A stretch of 64,000 nucleotides of DNA from the NCBI RefSeq assembly GCF_055900595.2, contig NZ_CM148325.1, one strand, 5' to 3'. The position numbers and the translations under genes are program-made. Shown one piece after another: positions 1 through 57,959 of this stretch. The stretch's first letter is position 1, and every line of letters starts with the position of its first letter. Under the pieces are notes generated by a model. It did no database searches. It was not told the origin of the DNA and worked only from the letters and a program-made list of their open reading frames with translations.

Positions 1-56
1 ATCCTGCCGATATTATCCCACAACTGCTGGATGAACAGAGAGTACAGGCTGTTTAA
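1..56 (+). CDS. flhC: FlhC flagellar master regulator subunit, C-terminal fragment (gene starts upstream of window)
   Basis: Frame 2 reads PADIIPQLLDEQRVQAV then TAA at 54-56; matches recalled FlhC C-terminus and its expected position upstream of motA. Confidence 0.7.
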   Translation, partial: PADIIPQLLDEQRVQAV

Positions 57-182
57 CTGATACGGTGAGGCGCAACATTCCAGCAGCGGTAACGACGTAC
101 CGCTGCTTTTTTTTGCCCCAATCGCGCGTTAACGCCTGACGACTGAACATCCTGTCATGGTCAACAGTGGAAGGATGATGTC

Positions 183-1066
183 GTGCTTATCTTATTAGGT
201 TACCTGGTTGTTCTCGGTACAGTTTTCGGCGGTTATTTGATGACCGGTGGAAGCCTTGGAGCACTCTATCAACCCGCTGAACTGGTGATTATTGCCGGTG
301 CAGGGATTGGGTCGTTTATCGTCGGCAATAATGGCAAAGCGATTAAAGGCACGCTGAAGGCGCTGCCGTTGCTGTTTCGTCGCTCCAAATACACCAAAGC
401 AATGTATATGGATCTGCTGGCTCTGCTTTATCGGTTGATGGCAAAATCGCGGCAGATGGGGATGTTTTCGCTGGAACGTGATATTGAAAATCCCCGTGAG
501 AGCGAGATCTTCGCCAGCTACCCACGCATCCTCGCGGATAGCGTCATGCTTGATTTTATCGTCGATTATCTGCGCCTGATTATCAGCGGTCACATGAACA
601 CCTTCGAAATCGAAGCCCTGATGGATGAAGAGATTGAGACGCACGAAAGCGAGGCAGAAGTCCCGGCGAACAGTCTGGCGCTGGTCGGGGACTCACTTCC
701 GGCGTTTGGTATTGTTGCGGCTGTAATGGGGGTCGTTCACGCGTTAGGTTCAGCCGATCGTCCTGCCGCCGAGCTGGGTGCGCTTATCGCACATGCGATG
801 GTGGGGACTTTCCTCGGCATTTTATTGGCTTACGGATTTATTTCCCCATTAGCGACTGTTTTACGTCAGAAAAGCGCCGAAACCAGCAAAATGATGCAGT
901 GCGTCAAAGTCACTCTGCTTTCTAATCTGAACGGTTACGCACCGCCTATCGCCGTTGAGTTTGGTCGCAAAACGCTCTATTCCAGCGAACGTCCGTCGTT
1001 TATTGAACTGGAAGAGCATGTGCGTGCGGTGAAAAATCCGCAACAACAGACGACAACCGAGGAAGC

Positions 1067-1070
<4 letters not shown>
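183..1070 (+). CDS. motA: Flagellar motor stator protein MotA (295 aa), GTG start
   Basis: ORF track 183..1070; translation [17 protein letters not shown]... and length match E. coli MotA; stop overlaps motB start (ATGA). Confidence 0.96.
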
Positions 1071-3962
<2,892 letters not shown>

Positions 3963-3982
3963 ATGAGTAAAAAGGTAACAAT

Positions 3983-4486
3983 ATGACCGGTATGACGAAT
4001 GTAACAAAGCTGGCCAGCGAGCCGTCAGGCCAGGAATTTCTGGTATTTACCCTTGGTGATGAAGAGTACGGTATTGATATCCTGAAAGTGCAGGAGATCC
4101 GTGGCTACGATCAGGTAACACGGATTGCGAACACGCCAGCGTTTATCAAAGGCGTCACGAATCTGCGCGGCGTTATTGTGCCGATTGTTGACTTACGAAT
4201 TAAGTTCAGCCAGGTGGATGTGGACTATAACGACAACACGGTAGTTATCGTCCTGAATCTCGGACAGCGGGTGGTCGGCATCGTGGTTGACGGCGTCTCA
4301 GACGTGCTTTCATTGACGGCGGAGCAAATTCGTCCGGCACCGGAATTTGCCGTGACGCTTTCAACAGAATATCTCACTGGACTGGGCGCACTGGGCGACC
4401 GGATGTTGATTCTGGTGAACATCGAAAAACTGCTGAACAGCGAAGAGATGGCGCTGTTAGATAGCGCGGCGTCAGAAGTGGCGTAA
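3983..4486 (+). CDS. cheW: Chemotaxis coupling protein CheW (167 aa)
   Basis: ORF track; [41 protein letters not shown]... Confidence 0.96.
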
Positions 4487-4512
4487 TTCTCCCGATTTCC
4501 TCAATTGAAATG

Positions 4513-4541
4513 AACCCGATGATCTGCGCATCGGGTTTTTT
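4513..4541 (+). terminator. Rho-independent terminator after cheW (end of motA-motB-cheA-cheW operon)
   Basis: Hairpin aacccgatg / catcgggtt followed by T-run (tcgggtttttt) read directly in sequence. Confidence 0.75.
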
Positions 4542-4572
4542 ATTTCAATTTCGCGGCGGGTGGCATCAGCAA

Positions 4573-4599
4573 TAAAGTTTCCCCCCTCCTTGCCGATAA
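4573..4599 (+). promoter_or_regulatory. sigma28 (FliA) class III promoter of the tar-tap-cheRBYZ operon
   Basis: TAAAGTTT (4573-4580), 11-nt spacer, GCCGATAA (4592-4599): perfect match to the sigma28 consensus, about 30 nt upstream of tar ATG. Confidence 0.85.
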
Positions 4600-4630
4600 C
4601 GAGATCAACTTGTTTTCAGGAAGGTGCCTT

Positions 4631-6292
4631 ATGATTAACCGTATCCGCGTAGTCACGCTGTTGGTAATGGTGCTGGGGGTATTCGCACTGTTACAGCTTA
4701 TTTCCGGCAGTCTGTTTTTTTCTTCCCTTCACCATAGCCAGAAGAGCTTTGTGGTTTCCAATCAATTACGGGAACAGCAGGGCGAGCTGACGTCAACCTG
4801 GGATTTAATGCTGCAAACGCGCATTAACCTGAGTCGTTCAGCGGTACGGATGATGATGGATTCCTCCAATCAACAAAGTAACGCCAAAGTTGAATTGCTC
4901 GATAGCGCCAGGAAAACATTGGCGCAGGCAGCGACGCATTATAAAAAATTCAAAAGCATGGCACCGTTACCTGAAATGGTCGCTACCAGTCGTAATATTG
5001 ATGAAAAATATAAAAACTATTACACAGCGTTAACTGAACTGATTGATTATCTAGATTATGGCAATACTGGAGCTTATTTCGCTCAGCCAACCCAGGGAAT
5101 GCAAAATGCAATGGGCGAAGCGTTTGCTCAGTACGCCCTCAGCAGTGAAAAACTGTATCGCGATATCGTCACTGACAACGCAGATGATTACCGATTTGCC
5201 CAGTGGCAACTGGCGGTTATCGCGCTGGTGGTGGTATTGATTCTGCTGGTGGCGTGGTACGGCATTCGCCGTATGTTGCTTACTCCGCTGGCAAAAATTA
5301 TTGCTCACATTCGCGAAATCGCCGGTGGTAACCTGGCGAATACCCTGACCATTGACGGGCGCAGTGAAATGGGCGACCTGGCGCAGAGCGTTTCACATAT
5401 GCAACGCTCTTTGACTGACACCGTCACTCATGTCCGCGAAGGTTCAGATGCCATCTATGCCGGTACCCGTGAAATTGCGGCGGGCAACACCGATCTTTCC
5501 TCCCGTACTGAACAGCAGGCATCCGCGCTGGAAGAAACTGCCGCCAGCATGGAGCAGCTCACCGCGACAGTGAAGCAAAACGCCGATAACGCCCGCCAGG
5601 CCTCGCAACTGGCGCAAAGTGCCTCCGACACCGCCCAGCACGGCGGCAAAGTGGTGGATGGCGTAGTGAAAACGATGCATGAGATCGCCGATAGTTCGAA
5701 GAAAATTGCCGACATTATCAGCGTTATCGACGGTATTGCCTTCCAGACTAATATCCTCGCGCTGAATGCCGCGGTTGAAGCCGCGCGTGCGGGTGAACAG
5801 GGCCGTGGTTTTGCCGTGGTGGCGGGTGAAGTGCGTAATCTTGCCAGTCGCAGCGCCCAGGCGGCAAAAGAGATCAAAGCCCTCATTGAAGACTCCGTCT
5901 CACGCGTTGATACCGGTTCGGTGCTGGTCGAAAGCGCCGGGGAAACAATGAACAATATCGTCAATGCTGTCACTCGCGTGACTGACATTATGGGCGAGAT
6001 TGCATCGGCATCGGATGAACAGAGCCGTGGCATCGATCAAGTCGCATTGGCGGTTTCGGAAATGGATCGCGTCACGCAACAGAACGCATCGCTGGTGCAG
6101 GAATCAGCTGCCGCCGCCGCTGCGCTGGAAGAACAGGCGAGTCGTTTAACGCAAGCGGTTTCCGCGTTCCGTCTGGCAGCCAGCCCACTCACCAATAAAC
6201 CGCAAACACCATCCCGTCCTGCCAGTGAGCAACCACCGGCACAGCCACGACTGCGAATTGCTGAACAAGATCCAAACTGGGAAACATTTTGA
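4631..6292 (+). CDS. tar: Methyl-accepting chemotaxis protein II Tar (aspartate/maltose receptor, 553 aa)
   Basis: ORF track 4610..6292 trimmed to ATG 4631 ([16 protein letters not shown]...); RBS caggaagg upstream; C-terminus ends NWETF. Confidence 0.95.
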
Positions 6293-6337
6293 CGAGTATT
6301 TACTAACGCGGTCATTGCCGCCTGATGGGGAGCGTTG

Positions 6338-7939
6338 ATGTTTAATCGTATTCGAATTTCGACCACGCTGTTTTTAATTTTGATTCTCTGCGGGATCTTG
6401 CAGATTGGCAGTAACGGCATGTCTTTTTGGGCATTTCGCGACGATTTGCAACGACTGAATCAGGTCGAGCAGAGCAATCAGCAACGTGCGGCATTAGCGC
6501 AAACTCGGGCGGTAATGTTACAGGCCAGTACCGCGCTGAACAAAGCGGGCACTCTGACGGCACTTAGCTATCCGGCGGATGACATTAAAACGTTGATGAC
6601 GACGGCGCGCGCCAGTCTGACGCAATCCACCACGCTGTTTAAAAGTTTTATGGCGATGACTGCGGGCAACGAGCACGTCAGGGCATTGCAAAAAGAGACG
6701 GAGAAAAGTTTTGCCCGCTGGCACAACGATCTCGAACATCAGGCGACCTGGCTTGAAAGTAATCAACTTTCGGATTTCCTCACTGCGCCGGTGCAGGGAT
6801 CACAGAATGCGTTTGACGTTAACTTTGAGGCCTGGCAGCTGGAGATCAACCATGTGCTGGAAGCCGCCAGTGCGCAAAGCCAGCGTAACTATCAGATTTC
6901 GGCACTGGTGTTTATCAGCATGATTATTGTTGCGGCGATCTACATCAGCAGTGCGCTGTGGTGGACGCGCAAGATGATTGTTCAACCACTGGCCATTATC
7001 GGTAGCCATTTTGACAGCATTGCTGCGGGTAATCTGGCGCGTCCGATTGCGGTATATGGTCGTAATGAGATCACCGCCATTTTTGCCAGTCTGAAGACCA
7101 TGCAGCAGGCTTTGCGTGGGACGGTAAGTGATGTGCGTAAGGGAAGCCAGGAGATGCACATTGGTATCGCGGAGATTGTCGCAGGCAATAACGATCTCTC
7201 AAGTCGTACCGAACAGCAGGCGGCATCGCTGGCACAAACGGCCGCCAGTATGGAGCAATTAACCGCCACGGTAGGGCAAAACGCCGATAACGCACGACAG
7301 GCGTCGGAACTGGCAAAAAATGCCGCGACAACGGCGCAGGCGGGCGGTGTTCAGGTCAGTACCATGACTCACACCATGCAGGAGATCGCCACCAGCTCGC
7401 AAAAAATTGGCGACATTATCAGCGTTATCGACGGAATTGCTTTCCAGACCAATATTCTGGCCCTGAATGCAGCAGTGGAAGCGGCTCGCGCCGGAGAGCA
7501 GGGGCGTGGTTTTGCGGTAGTGGCAGGTGAAGTGCGCAATCTTGCCAGCCGTAGCGCGCAGGCAGCAAAAGAGATCAAAGGGCTGATCGAAGAGTCAGTC
7601 AATCGTGTCCAGCAGGGTTCGAAACTGGTGAATAACGCCGCCGCGACCATGATCGATATTGTCAGTTCGGTGACCCGCGTGAACGACATTATGGGAGAAA
7701 TTGCCTCTGCGTCGGAAGAACAACAGCGGGGGATTGAGCAGGTTGCACAGGCTGTCAGCCAGATGGATCAGGTGACTCAGCAGAACGCCTCGCTGGTAGA
7801 AGAAGCGGCGGTGGCAACGGAACAACTGGCGAATCAGGCCGACCATCTTTCGTCGCGTGTGGCGGTATTTACCCTTGAAGAATATGAAGTAGCACGACAT
7901 GAGTCGGTGCAGTTACAAATTGCGCCAGTGGTATCCTGA
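6338..7939 (+). CDS. tap: Methyl-accepting chemotaxis protein IV Tap (dipeptide/pyrimidine receptor, 533 aa)
   Basis: ORF track 6335..7939 trimmed to ATG 6338 (MFNRIRISTTLFLILIL...); signalling domain near-identical to Tar; no NWETF tail. Confidence 0.95.
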   Translation: MFNRIRISTTLFLILILCGILQIGSNGMSFWAFRDDLQRLNQVEQSNQQRAALAQTRAVMLQASTALNKAGTLTALSYPADDIKTLMTTARASLTQSTTLFKSFMAMTAGNEHVRALQKETEKSFARWHNDLEHQATWLESNQLSDFLTAPVQGSQNAFDVNFEAWQLEINHVLEAASAQSQRNYQISALVFISMIIVAAIYISSALWWTRKMIVQPLAIIGSHFDSIAAGNLARPIAVYGRNEITAIFASLKTMQQALRGTVSDVRKGSQEMHIGIAEIVAGNNDLSSRTEQQAASLAQTAASMEQLTATVGQNADNARQASELAKNAATTAQAGGVQVSTMTHTMQEIATSSQKIGDIISVIDGIAFQTNILALNAAVEAARAGEQGRGFAVVAGEVRNLASRSAQAAKEIKGLIEESVNRVQQGSKLVNNAAATMIDIVSSVTRVNDIMGEIASASEEQQRGIEQVAQAVSQMDQVTQQNASLVEEAAVATEQLANQADHLSSRVAVFTLEEYEVARHESVQLQIAPVVS

Positions 7940-7957
7940 AGTGATTGAGAAGGCGCT

Positions 7958-8818
7958 ATGACTTCATCTCTGCCCTGTGGGCAAACGTCTTTATTGTTAC
8001 AGATGACCGAGCGCCTGGCGCTTTCCGACGCGCATTTTCGGCGGATAAGTCAATTGATCTATCAACGAGCCGGGATCGTTCTGGCTGACCATAAACGCGA
8101 CATGGTTTACAACCGACTGGTTCGTCGTTTGCGTTCGCTGGGACTGACGGATTTCGGTCATTATCTGAACTTGCTGGAATCTAATCAGCACAGCGGTGAG
8201 TGGCAGGCGTTTATCAATTCGCTGACCACGAATCTGACGGCATTTTTCCGTGAGGCACACCATTTCCCTCTGCTCGCGGATCACGCACGTCGCCGTTCTG
8301 GCGAGTATCGCGTATGGAGCGCGGCGGCTTCGACCGGCGAAGAGCCGTACAGCATTGCGATGACGCTGGCTGACACATTGGGCACCGCGCCCGGACGCTG
8401 GAAAGTGTTTGCCAGTGATATCGACACCAAAGTGCTGGAAAAAGCCAGAAGCGGTATTTATCGCCATGAAGAGTTGAAAAACCTGACGCCGCAGCAACTG
8501 CAACGGTATTTCATGCGAGGGACGGGACCGCATGAAGGGCTGGTACGCGTGCGTCAGGAGCTGGCGAACTATGTTGATTTTGCCCCGCTGAATCTACTGG
8601 CGAAACAGTACACCGTGCCGGGGCCGTTTGATGCGATCTTCTGTCGTAACGTCATGATCTACTTCGATCAAAATACCCAGCAGGAGATTTTGCGCCGCTT
8701 TGTTCCGCTCCTTAAACCCGACGGATTGCTGTTTGCGGGTCACTCTGAAAACTTTAGCCACCTTGAGCGCCGCTTCACGCTGCGTGGTCAGACGGTGTAT
8801 GCGCTAAGTAAGGATTAA
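7958..8818 (+). CDS. cheR: Chemotaxis methyltransferase CheR (286 aa)
   Basis: ORF track; [40 protein letters not shown]... Confidence 0.96.
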
Positions 8819-8820
8819 CG

Positions 8821-10274
<1,454 letters not shown>

Positions 10275-10284
10275 GGATGCGACT

Positions 10285-10929
10285 ATGATGCAACCATCAA
10301 TCAAACCTGCTGACGAGCATTCAGCTGGCGATATCATTGCGCGCATCGGCAGCCTGACGCGTATGCTGCGCGACAGTTTGCGGGAACTGGGGCTGGATCA
10401 GGCCATTGCCGAAGCGGCGGAAGCCATCCCCGATGCGCGCGATCGTTTGTACTATGTTGTGCAGATGACCGCCCAGGCTGCGGAGCGGGCGCTGAACAGT
10501 GTTGAGGCGTCACAACCGCATCAGGATCAAATGGAGAAATCAGCAAAAGCGTTAACCCAACGTTGGGATGACTGGTTTGCCGATCCGATTGACCTTGCCG
10601 ACGCCCGTGAACTGGTAACAGATACACGACAATTTCTGGCAGATGTACCCGCGCATACCAGCTTTACTAACGCGCAACTGCTGGAAATCATGATGGCGCA
10701 GGATTTTCAGGATCTCACCGGGCAGGTCATTAAGCGGATGATGGATGTCATTCAGGAGATCGAACGCCAGTTGCTGATGGTGCTGTTGGAAAACATCCCG
10801 GAACAGGAGTCGCGTCCAAAACGTGAAAACCAGAGTTTGCTTAATGGACCTCAGGTCGATACCAGCAAAGCCGGTGTGGTAGCCAGTCAGGATCAGGTGG
10901 ACGATTTGTTGGATAGTCTTGGATTTTGA
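10285..10929 (+). CDS. cheZ: CheY-P phosphatase CheZ (214 aa)
   Basis: ORF track 10255..10929 trimmed to ATG 10285 ([22 protein letters not shown]...); 10255 start would overlap cheY. Confidence 0.94.
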
Positions 10930-10937
10930 TTTGTATT

Positions 10938-11005
10938 GCCTGATGTGGCGTGACCACGTCATATCAGGCGGTCTGATAAGGCGATGACGCCGCATCCGAC
11001 AAACG
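10938..11005. repeat. REP-type extragenic palindromes between cheZ and flhB
   Basis: Imperfect palindromes gcctgatgtggcgtgaccacgtcatatcaggcg and ggcgatgacgccgcatccgacaaacg with the GCCGCATCCG REP core. Confidence 0.6.
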
Positions 11006-11130
11006 CACACTATGCTTGATGTGTGGCAGCAAAAGCCCTAAATCCCGCCTGTTTTGCCCCTTACTCAAACCATTGAACGCTTTGCGCTCTGGCATCATTC
11101 ACGCTTAATACTCTTTCCAGGATTGGCGAC

Positions 11131-18046: not shown

Positions 18047-18883
<837 letters not shown>

Positions 18884-22799: not shown

Positions 22800-22902
22800 C
22801 ATGCCGGATGCGACGTGAACGCCTTATCCGGCCTACAAAATTGTGCAAATTCAATATATTGCAGGAGATGAGTAGGCCTGATAAGCGTAGCGCATCAGGC
22901 AG
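22800..22902. repeat. REP/BIME cluster between convergent torZ and cmoB
   Basis: tgccggatgcgacgtgaacgccttatccggcctac and taggcctgataagcgtagcgcatcaggca palindromic REP units. Confidence 0.65.
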
Positions 22903-41184: not shown

Positions 41185-42627
41185 TTACTCTACAGTTAAA
41201 ATACGCGTGGTATTAGTAGAACCCACGGTACTCATCACGTCGCCCTGGGTGACAATCACCAGGTCACCAGACATCAAGTAACCTTTATCGCGCAGCAGAT
41301 TAACCGCTTCGCTGGCAGCTGCTACGCCGTCATTAGCGCTATCAAAGTGCACCGGCGTAACGCCACGATAGAGAGCAGTCAGATTCAGCGTACGTTCATG
41401 GCGCGACATAGCGAAAATCGGCAGACCGGAGCTGATACGGGAGGTCATCAGAGCGGTACGACCCGATTCGGTCATAGTGATGATCGCCGTAACGCCTTTC
41501 AGGTGGTTAGCCGCGTACATCGCTGACATGGCGATAGCTTCTTCCACATTGTCGAACTGAACGTCCAGACGGTGTTTAGAAACGTTGATGCTCGGGATTT
41601 TTTCAGCACCCAGGCAAACACGCGCCATGGCTGCAACGGTTTCTGAAGGATACTGACCAGCAGCAGTTTCTGCAGACAGCATCACAGCGTCAGTACCATC
41701 CAGAACGGCGTTTGCTACGTCCATGACTTCCGCACGCGTCGGCATCGGGTTAGTAATCATTGACTCCATCATCTGGGTCGCAGTGATTACCGCGCGGTTT
41801 AGTTGACGTGCACGACGGATCAACGCTTTCTGAATGCCGACCAGTTCCGGGTCGCCAATTTCCACACCGAGGTCGCCGCGAGCAACCATTACCACGTCAG
41901 AGGCGAGGATGATGTCATCCATTGCATCCTGGCTGCAAACGGCTTCCGCACGTTCAACTTTGGCGACAATTTTTGCATCACAACCTGCGTCGCGAGCCAG
42001 GCGGCGTGCATAGTTCAGATCTTCGCCGCAGCGCGGGAAGGAAACAGCCAGGTAATCTACGCCAATCAACGCCGCAGTCTTAATGTCTGCTTTGTCTTTT
42101 TCGGTCAGCGCTTCAGCCGACAAACCACCGCCGAGTTTGTTGATACCTTTATTGTTGGAGAGCGGACCGCCGACGGTCACTTCGGTGAATACTTTCATGC
42201 CTTGAACTTCCAGTACTTTTAACTGGACGCGACCATCGTCCAACAGCAGGATGTCACCAGGCACGACGTCAGCAGGCAGGCCTTTGTAGTCGATACCGAC
42301 TTTTTCTTTGTCGCCTTCACCTTTACCCAGGTTGGCGTCGAGCAGGAATTTATCCCCAATATTGAGGAAAACTTTGCCTTCTTTAAAGGTGGATACACGA
42401 ATTTTGGGCCCCTGGAGGTCACCCAGAATAGCCACATGACGCCCCAGTTTTGCGGCAATTTCACGAACTTTATCCGCGCGCATTTTGTGATCTTCAGGAG
42501 AGCCGTGAGAAAAGTTCATACGTACAACGTTTGCACCCGCAGCGATAACTTTCTCAAGGTTATTATCGCGATCTGTTGCTGGGCCTAACGTGGTAACGAT
42601 TTTTGTTCTGCGAAGCCTTCTGGACAT
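41185..42627 (-). CDS. pykA: Pyruvate kinase II PykA (480 aa)
   Basis: ORF track 41185..42768 trimmed to ATG at 42627 ([27 protein letters not shown]...). Confidence 0.95.
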
Positions 42628-56978: not shown

Positions 56979-57198
56979 AACATTTAAGCTGATGACCACC
57001 ACGCTTTTTATTGACCATTTTGCACGCAAACTGGAAAACCTGGCGTCGTCATCTATTCTTAAAGGGCAAGGCAACTAAGCCTGCATTAATGCCAACTTTT
57101 AGCGCACGGCTCTCTCCCAAGAGCCATTTCCCTGGACCGAATACAGGAATCGTGTTCGGTCTCTTTTTATCTGTTAAAAGCCAGAAGCATTCCCTTCG
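56950..57198 (-). ncRNA. ryeA: RyeA (SraC) sRNA, antisense to and fully overlapping SdsR; ends approximate
   Basis: Established ryeA/ryeB antisense pair between yebY and pphA; 3' end set at the 56936..56978 terminator, 5' end from recalled about 249-nt length. Confidence 0.5.
57066..57168 (+). ncRNA. sdsR: SdsR (RyeB) sigmaS-dependent sRNA, about 103 nt
   Basis: Sequence gcaaggcaactaagcctgcattaatgcc...gaatcgtgttcggtctcttttt matches recalled SdsR incl. terminator; upstream -10 tattct with -13 C. Confidence 0.8.
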
Positions 57199-57302: not shown

Positions 57303-57959
57303 ATGAAACAGCCTGCGCCCGTTTATCAGAGAATTGCGGGTCATCAATGGCGACATATCTGGCTTTCAGGCGATATACACGGTTGTCTTGAGCAGTTGCG
57401 CCGCAAATTATGGCATTGTCGTTTTGATCCGTGGCGAGATTTACTTATCTCAGTGGGAGACGTTATCGATCGTGGGCCGCAAAGTTTACGTTGCCTGCAG
57501 TTACTGGAACAACATTGGGTTCGTGCGGTAAGAGGCAATCATGAACAGATGGCGATGGATGCGCTGGCATCCCAGCAGATGTCTTTGTGGTTGATGAATG
57601 GCGGCGACTGGTTTATTGCGCTGGCAGATAATCAACAGAAACAAGCGAAAACGGCGCTGGAAAAATGTCAGTATTTGCCCTTTATTCTTGAAGTACACAG
57701 TCGCACCGGCAAACATGTTATTGCCCATGCCGATTATCCGGATGATGTTTATGAATGGCAAAAGGACGTCGATTTGCATCAGGTCTTGTGGAGCCGCTCA
57801 CGATTACGTGAAGGCCAAAAAGGGCAGGGAATTACAGGTGCTGATCATTTCTGGTTTGGTCATACACCGTTGCGCCATCGCGTGGATATTGGCAACCTGC
57901 ATTATATTGATACCGGTGCTGTCTTTGGGGGAGAACTGACTCTTGTGCAATTGCAATAA
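57303..57959 (+). CDS. pphA: Serine/threonine protein phosphatase 1 PphA (PrpA), PPP-family metallophosphatase (218 aa)
   Basis: ORF track 57300..57959 (TTG) trimmed to ATG 57303 (MKQPAPVYQRIAGHQWRHIWLSGDIHGCLEQL...). Confidence 0.93.
   Translation: MKQPAPVYQRIAGHQWRHIWLSGDIHGCLEQLRRKLWHCRFDPWRDLLISVGDVIDRGPQSLRCLQLLEQHWVRAVRGNHEQMAMDALASQQMSLWLMNGGDWFIALADNQQKQAKTALEKCQYLPFILEVHSRTGKHVIAHADYPDDVYEWQKDVDLHQVLWSRSRLREGQKGQGITGADHFWFGHTPLRHRVDIGNLHYIDTGAVFGGELTLVQLQ

Follow-up and report, generated by a model that had tools for sequence, protein, structure and literature searches.

The window, a stretch of 64,000 nucleotides, begins within the 3' end of flhC and contains the motA and tar operons, whose genes and promoter elements all lie on the plus strand. 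The end of flhC occupies positions 1-56, with its stop codon at 54-56, and is followed by motA (183-1070), motB (1067-1993), cheA (1998-3962) and cheW (3983-4486), which form the motA-motB-cheA-cheW operon (183-4486), driven by a promoter inside flhC. The tar-tap-cheRBYZ operon (4631-10929), driven by the promoter Ptar, is composed of tar (4631-6292), tap (6338-7939), cheR (7958-8818), cheB (8821-9870), cheY (9885-10274) and cheZ (10285-10929). All genes were assigned from open reading frames and annotation. Many complete Escherichia coli chromosomes are 100% identical to window positions 1-6000, and the region is present in 5409 of 5426 genomes. For the sequence preceding the window we used L001, an annotated E. 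coli genome without differences from the window in the first 6 kb; its position 3001 corresponds to window position 1, and flhC, running up to window position 56, lies at 2478-3056. Its RefSeq annotation, which also supports the assignment of motA, motB, cheA and cheW, gives the order flhD, flhC, motA, motB, cheA, cheW, tar, tap, cheR and cheB, in agreement with the open reading frames of the window. The sigma factor gene fliA is outside the window and is annotated approximately 35 kb upstream in NZ_CP028578.2, a genome 100% identical to positions 1-6000. In the E. coli genome NZ_CP080080.1, the region matching positions 1-6000 is interrupted by about 1.2 kb of inserted DNA, the IS5-like element ISKpn26.

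The two operons are divided by an intrinsic terminator 3' of cheW (4512-4544), composed of a 10-bp stem (4512-4538) and a T run. Its predicted fold has an energy of -20.3 kcal/mol (z = -4.4), and none of 200 shuffled sequences was equally stable. Because this strong terminator lies only 35 nt before the -35 element described below, tar is expected to have its own promoter. At the other end of the tar operon, a terminator-like site was looked for in the gap between cheZ and flhB (10930-11130) and none was found. This is compatible with a slight FliA-dependent read-through into flhBAE, a point discussed by Fitzgerald et al. (2014, PMC4183435), who found flhB to be slightly increased upon FliA overexpression. 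Elsewhere in the window, Rfam matches at gathering level correspond to known E. coli small RNAs expected for this chromosomal region: MicL (18574-18881) and ES036 (CssrF, 22837-22879) on the plus strand, SraC/RyeA (57028-57172) on the minus strand and SdsR/RyeB (57069-57168) on the plus strand.

The promoter upstream of tar

Just downstream of the cheW terminator, and in the same orientation as tar, Ptar is composed of a -35 element, TAAAGTTT (4573-4580), an 11-nt spacer, cccccctcctt (4581-4591), whose length is fixed and whose sequence is free, and a -10 element, GCCGATAA (4592-4599), with T4591 just before it also invariant. The site is separated from the tar ATG by 31 nt. The original prediction had placed a perfect sigma-28 consensus at 4573-4599, and these coordinates are exact: TAAAGTTT-N11-GCCGATAA is the sole match with zero mismatches in the 64 kb, on either strand. 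Given a near-even base composition, chance would give an exact 16-base match about 3e-5 times in 2 x 64,000 positions; for matches with up to three mismatches the expectation is 0.44 per window. The prediction had also proposed a scan for FliA sites with a position weight matrix (PWM). Table 2 of Fitzgerald et al. (2014, PMC4183435) lists 52 FliA ChIP-seq motifs; our matrix was derived from 50 of them, those of tar and motA being withheld to avoid circularity, and 17 bits served as the cut-off for a site. Ptar scores 26.7 bits, higher than each of the 50 training sites, over a background in the window with a mean of -19.7 and a standard deviation of 8.2; the runner-up, at 57710-57737, has 14.7 bits. 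The scan of both strands thus revealed no second credible FliA site within the window, all other scores being at or below that value. These lower matches were rejected as FliA sites, as they are under the cut-off and, assuming that the window is colinear with K-12, fall in a stretch for which Table 2 of Fitzgerald et al. gives no FliA ChIP site. One of the candidates, at 42350-42376 on the minus strand (three mismatches, -10 GGGGATAA), was dismissed as a chance match, since it scores at most 12 bits and 0.44 matches of such quality are expected per window.

Fitzgerald et al. (2014, PMC4183435) list the Ptar 28-mer letter for letter in their Table 2 and report a FliA ChIP-seq signal at tar of 57 fold above threshold and tar RNA levels of 251 in the motile wild type and 0 in the fliA deletion. 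In the methods section of Goldman et al. (2015, PMC4604602), Ptar is given as TAAAGTTTcccccctccttGCCGATAAcgagatcA and described as a sigma-28-dependent promoter, with the +1 capitalised; this statement puts the start of the tar operon transcript at A4607, 8 nt after position 4599, close to the distance of about 7 nt that had been anticipated from the sequence. The resulting 24-nt leader contains the probable Shine-Dalgarno region of tar, aggaaggt (4618-4625), identified by its sequence and by partly conserved columns. Hollands et al. (PMC2859248) give the same FliA consensus and a start for aer 6 bp past its octamer, and they saw no CRP binding at the tar and motA fragments.

Conservation of the site was analysed by a CheW search with one genome per species, which yielded 80 loci from about 30 enterobacterial genera, or 81 with L001. 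Scanning these loci on both strands with the leave-out matrix, at a threshold of 17 bits, gave 106 sites: 72 in flhC, 27 upstream of tar orthologues, six weak ones near motB and one other. Minus-strand sites of at least 17 bits were absent from all 81 loci. The 27 sites upstream of tar orthologues have at least 18.8 bits and are found 30 nt from the start codon in most loci and 16-35 nt from it in a few; one call of 208 nt probably reflects a miscalled start. In an alignment of the tar promoters of 22 species, T46 and A48-T52 of the -35 element, TGCCGATAA (T64-A72) and the +1 A (A80) do not vary, and A47 has a conservation of 90% or more, while the spacer and the upstream region are variable. 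This pattern points to purifying selection on both elements and on their spacing, and not on the sequence of the spacer. The six weak sites, TAAAGAATTGAT[C/T]CA[G/A]ATTGCCGAATA[T/C], score 17.0-17.1 bits. They belong to several Citrobacter loci and to Phytobacter massiliensis (L005, L009, L014, L025, L037 and L059), where they lie near the motA/motB junction, about 1.2 kb further downstream than the flhC site.

It is a general caveat that a match to a consensus is not the same as function, and on that ground 4573-4599 might be a chance resemblance, or a sigma-70 promoter taken for a sigma-28 one. The probability of this is negligible, given the number of exact matches expected by chance, the conservation of the site across genera and the loss of tar RNA in the fliA deletion (PMC4183435); moreover, a sigma-70-like promoter was looked for on the plus strand of the cheW-tar interval and none was found. 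Alternatively, a sigma-28 site at 4573-4599 could be redundant or minor, the main source of tar-tap-cheRBYZ expression being transcripts that start at the motA promoter and run on through cheW. The two operons are indeed co-oriented and only 144 nt apart, MotR/S10-dependent antitermination of these operons has been proposed (PMC10578931), and RNA-seq of the fliA deletion cannot by itself separate the two inputs, both being FliA-dependent (PMC4183435). Against this stand the strength of the cheW terminator, the FliA ChIP-seq peak at tar, which is separate and 4.6 kb from the flhC peak (PMC4183435), and the activity of the isolated Ptar fragment as a sigma-28 promoter (PMC4604602). The other genera add a further argument: where 1.6-4 kb part cheW from tar, the FliA site keeps with tar and not with cheW, and remains mostly 30 nt from the ATG. 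We therefore consider predominant read-through very unlikely and retain Ptar as the promoter of the tar operon. The extra DNA between the two genes was seen in Citrobacter, Kluyvera, Pseudocitrobacter and Phytobacter (among loci L005-L079), in contrast to E. coli and Salmonella.

The promoter within flhC and its transcripts

The window edge cuts through a second promoter. The octamer GCCGATAT at 6-13, within flhC, is the -10 element of the motR/motAB-cheAW promoter, which is FliA-dependent in published work. In the original prediction, gccgatat in the flhC 3' end had been noticed as a sigma-28 -10-like element and a possible motA promoter, with the -35 lying outside the window. The octamer is present and is a sigma-28 -10, but it had been placed at 4-11, two nucleotides off. 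Because the window starts inside the spacer, the -35 element was taken from the genomes identical over the first 6 kb; L001 reads TAAACTTT-cccagaatcct-GCCGATAT at 2987-3014, an arrangement with an 11-nt spacer whose last 5 nt are window positions 1-5. The -35 element, TAAACTTT, hence lies at window positions -13 to -6, outside the window as had been supposed, and the complete site scores 22.8-23.2 bits with the leave-out matrix. The octamer at the window start is weak by itself, and a lone GCCGATAW was rejected as promoter evidence because it is too common (10 occurrences in the window and 4.1 expected); the full site was recovered from the sequence upstream of the window.

The motA site that Fitzgerald et al. 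(2014, PMC4183435) give in their Table 2, TAAACTTTCCCAGAATCCTGCCGATATT, has the same letters as the site inside flhC. In that study FliA ChIP at (flhC)motAB-cheAW was 101 fold above threshold, and motA RNA was 302 compared with 1 in the fliA deletion. The centre-to-centre gap between the two motifs in the window is 4586 nt, as in K-12 (1975347 - 1970761). These data support the identification of the octamer at 6-13 as the -10 of the published motAB-cheAW promoter. Among the enterobacterial loci, sites in flhC of at least 19 bits, about 165 nt upstream of the motA start, were found in 72 of the 73 for which sequence upstream of motA is available. The exception is Enterobacter cloacae DSM 26481 (L042), with a 10-nt spacer (TAAACTTT CCGGGATGCT GCCGATAT); this 1-nt deletion in flhC would also shift the FlhC frame and may be a real variant or an assembly error.

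The promoter inside flhC has a further product, which was absent from the original prediction. According to Melamed et al. (2023, PMC10578931), MotR is a sigma-28-dependent, Hfq-binding small RNA made from the motA 5' UTR, and transcripts that pass its terminator give the motAB-cheAW mRNA. Within the window, MotR and the motA 5' leader occupy positions 20-115, with the +1 at A20, a terminator hairpin at 82-107, where MotR ends, and a U run at 108-115. The +1 is derived from the 5'-phosphorylated motR cloning primer of Melamed et al. (2023, PMC10578931), ACAACTGCTGGATGAACAGAGAGTAC (ACAACTGCTGG...), which matches from window position 20, 7 nt past the octamer. A terminator search and folding both recovered the hairpin, followed by a run of eight T. 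The fold of the whole molecule is unexceptional (z = -1.5), the terminator hairpin alone being clear, and Rfam 15 has no family match at the position of MotR at gathering thresholds.

Since the -10 octamer lies in coding sequence, and is read in frame as GCC GAT (6-11), Ala177-Asp178 of FlhC, its conservation could reflect solely the need of FlhC for these two residues, without any promoter element; the frequency of lone GCCGATAW octamers in the window fits with this. In order to evaluate it, 69 distinct enterobacterial flhC 3' ends were compared. They were selected for a matrix score of 19 bits or more together with an exact TAAACTTT, a choice that by itself fixes the -35 columns. Across the 69 sequences GCC and GAT show no synonymous change at their third positions, and TGCCGATA is invariant or nearly so across codon positions. 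Upstream of the -35 element, at a distance of 12-45 nt, third codon positions differ between sequences (identity 0.14-0.75), and in the spacer even the encoded amino acids change. A purely coding explanation also leaves aside the -35 element at exactly 11 nt, the FliA binding and the fall of motA RNA in the fliA deletion (PMC4183435), and the finding that an FlhC D178A mutant is fully motile (bioRxiv 10.1101/188474). On these grounds it is extremely improbable, and the octamer is best read as a promoter element. The conservation of the -10 reproduces the published conclusion that this sequence is a 'duon' (bioRxiv 10.1101/188474).

Two other segments show the same behaviour among the 69 sequences. 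The 11 nt directly upstream of the motA -35 element, GTAAAAAGACG (L001 2976-2986, window positions -24 to -14), and MotR nucleotides 1-19 (window 20-38) are both close to invariant, synonymous positions included. As synonymous sites farther upstream are variable, this suggests a constraint beyond the overlap of Ala-Asp with the -10 element. Whether the last 25 or so codons of flhC carry overlapping information in addition to the published duon is a tentative suggestion, which we consider possible and rather doubtful. GTAAAAAGACG itself could be an UP-like element or an extended -35 contact.

Two class 3 promoters and their known counterparts

By the established flagellar hierarchy, Ptar and the motA promoter fire only after completion of the hook-basal body, when the export of FlgM frees FliA. 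Both are textbook class 3 flagellar promoters, and Ptar has been used as a model sigma-28 promoter. Our own matrix scan and the conservation across genera agree with the publications, and together they support 4573-4599 as the sigma-28 (FliA) class 3 promoter of tar-tap-cheRBYZ; the original view of the tar promoter as FliA-type is thereby sustained by Fitzgerald et al. (2014, PMC4183435), by Goldman et al. (2015, PMC4604602) and by the 22-species alignment. Taking the two sites together, we estimate a probability of roughly 97% that both are class 3 FliA promoters, with starts at A4607 for tar-tap-cheRBYZ and at A20 for MotR and motAB-cheAW. The FliA binding, the fliA dependence, the start sites and MotR come from published work, and the sequence match, its statistical exceptionality, the cross-genus conservation, the terminators and the gene order from the present analysis.

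According to this reading, sigma-28 RNA polymerase would recognise TAAAGTTT as the -35 and GCCGATAA as the -10, held 11 nt apart, and would initiate at A4607 to produce a tar-tap-cheRBYZ mRNA with a 24-nt leader. The position of Ptar directly 3' of the cheW terminator would give the tar operon its own FliA input, in place of read-through from motA. The second class 3 promoter sits within the final 22 codons of flhC and would start at A20; its transcripts would either stop at the hairpin at 82-107, giving the Hfq-binding MotR, or read through into motAB-cheAW. We infer that both promoters behave in the present strain as they do in K-12.

Compared with Ptar of the 'meche' operon of E. coli K-12, there is no difference: the 28-mer TAAAGTTTCCCCCCTCCTTGCCGATAAC is identical, its placement relative to cheW and tar is unchanged, and so is the +1 A. 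The site in the window is the same promoter in another E. coli strain. The tar (cheM) promoters of Salmonella, Citrobacter, Kluyvera, Kosakonia and others have the form TAAAGTT[T/A/C]-N11-GCCGATAA[C/T] and the same +1 A, but their spacer and upstream sequences are unrelated to those of the window, and in several genera tar is not beside cheW. The E. coli class 3 promoters of fliC, flgMN, tsr, yhjH and aer share the bipartite motif and the 11-nt spacing (PMC4183435); in contrast to Ptar, they have one to four deviations from the consensus, and aer needs CRP as well (PMC2859248). Regarding the motA/motR promoter of E. coli and Salmonella (Fitzgerald et al. 2014; 2017 preprint; Melamed et al. 2023), TAAACTTT-N11-GCCGATAT is identical as far as the window contains it, in the -10 and part of the spacer, and so are the overlap with FlhC Ala177-Asp178, the MotR 5' end and the terminator. 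The one difference is that the window, whose edge cuts off the -35, begins within the spacer, 5 nt before the -10.

Both promoters are already known in detail, and in this sense the finding is ordinary. Its value is one of calibration, as a reading of the sequence alone caught a functional sigma-28 promoter and also the -10 of the motA promoter truncated at the edge. Because the edge of the window cuts a functional element, scores near position 1 need the upstream sequence.

Variation of the tar promoter region among E. coli genomes

The allele of the window over 4570-4609 is matched at 99% or more in 3010 genomes, of 3070 matched in all. A C-to-T change at 4586, in the Ptar spacer, distinguishes 1078 of the 5426 genomes and is the form found in O157:H7. 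Shortening of the C run by one base, giving a 10-nt spacer, was seen in six of the 5426 and may be a rare mutation or a homopolymer sequencing error. We considered whether the run of six C could act as a slippage or phase-variation switch between 11 and 10 nt, and rejected this because the 10-nt form occurs in only those six complete genomes. In four aligned variant strains both octamers are intact; the changes affect the spacer, sequence 25 nt before the -35 and sequence that directly follows the -10.

The segment upstream of the Ptar -35 element is not conserved outside Escherichia. A full-length Rfam match (111.6 bits) to the candidate small RNA C0465 (RF00116) lies at 4506-4583 on the minus strand. 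It is antisense to the cheW terminator and has an 11-nt overlap with Ptar at the -35. Such a candidate antisense RNA could in principle interfere with Ptar.

In E. coli strain E1 (L086, NZ_CP195951.1) an IS1A is inserted just past the start of the tar Shine-Dalgarno region, at about window position 4621. Beside it motB is inverted, only part of cheA is present and cheW is interrupted by a stop codon, so that the locus is rearranged with the promoter intact.
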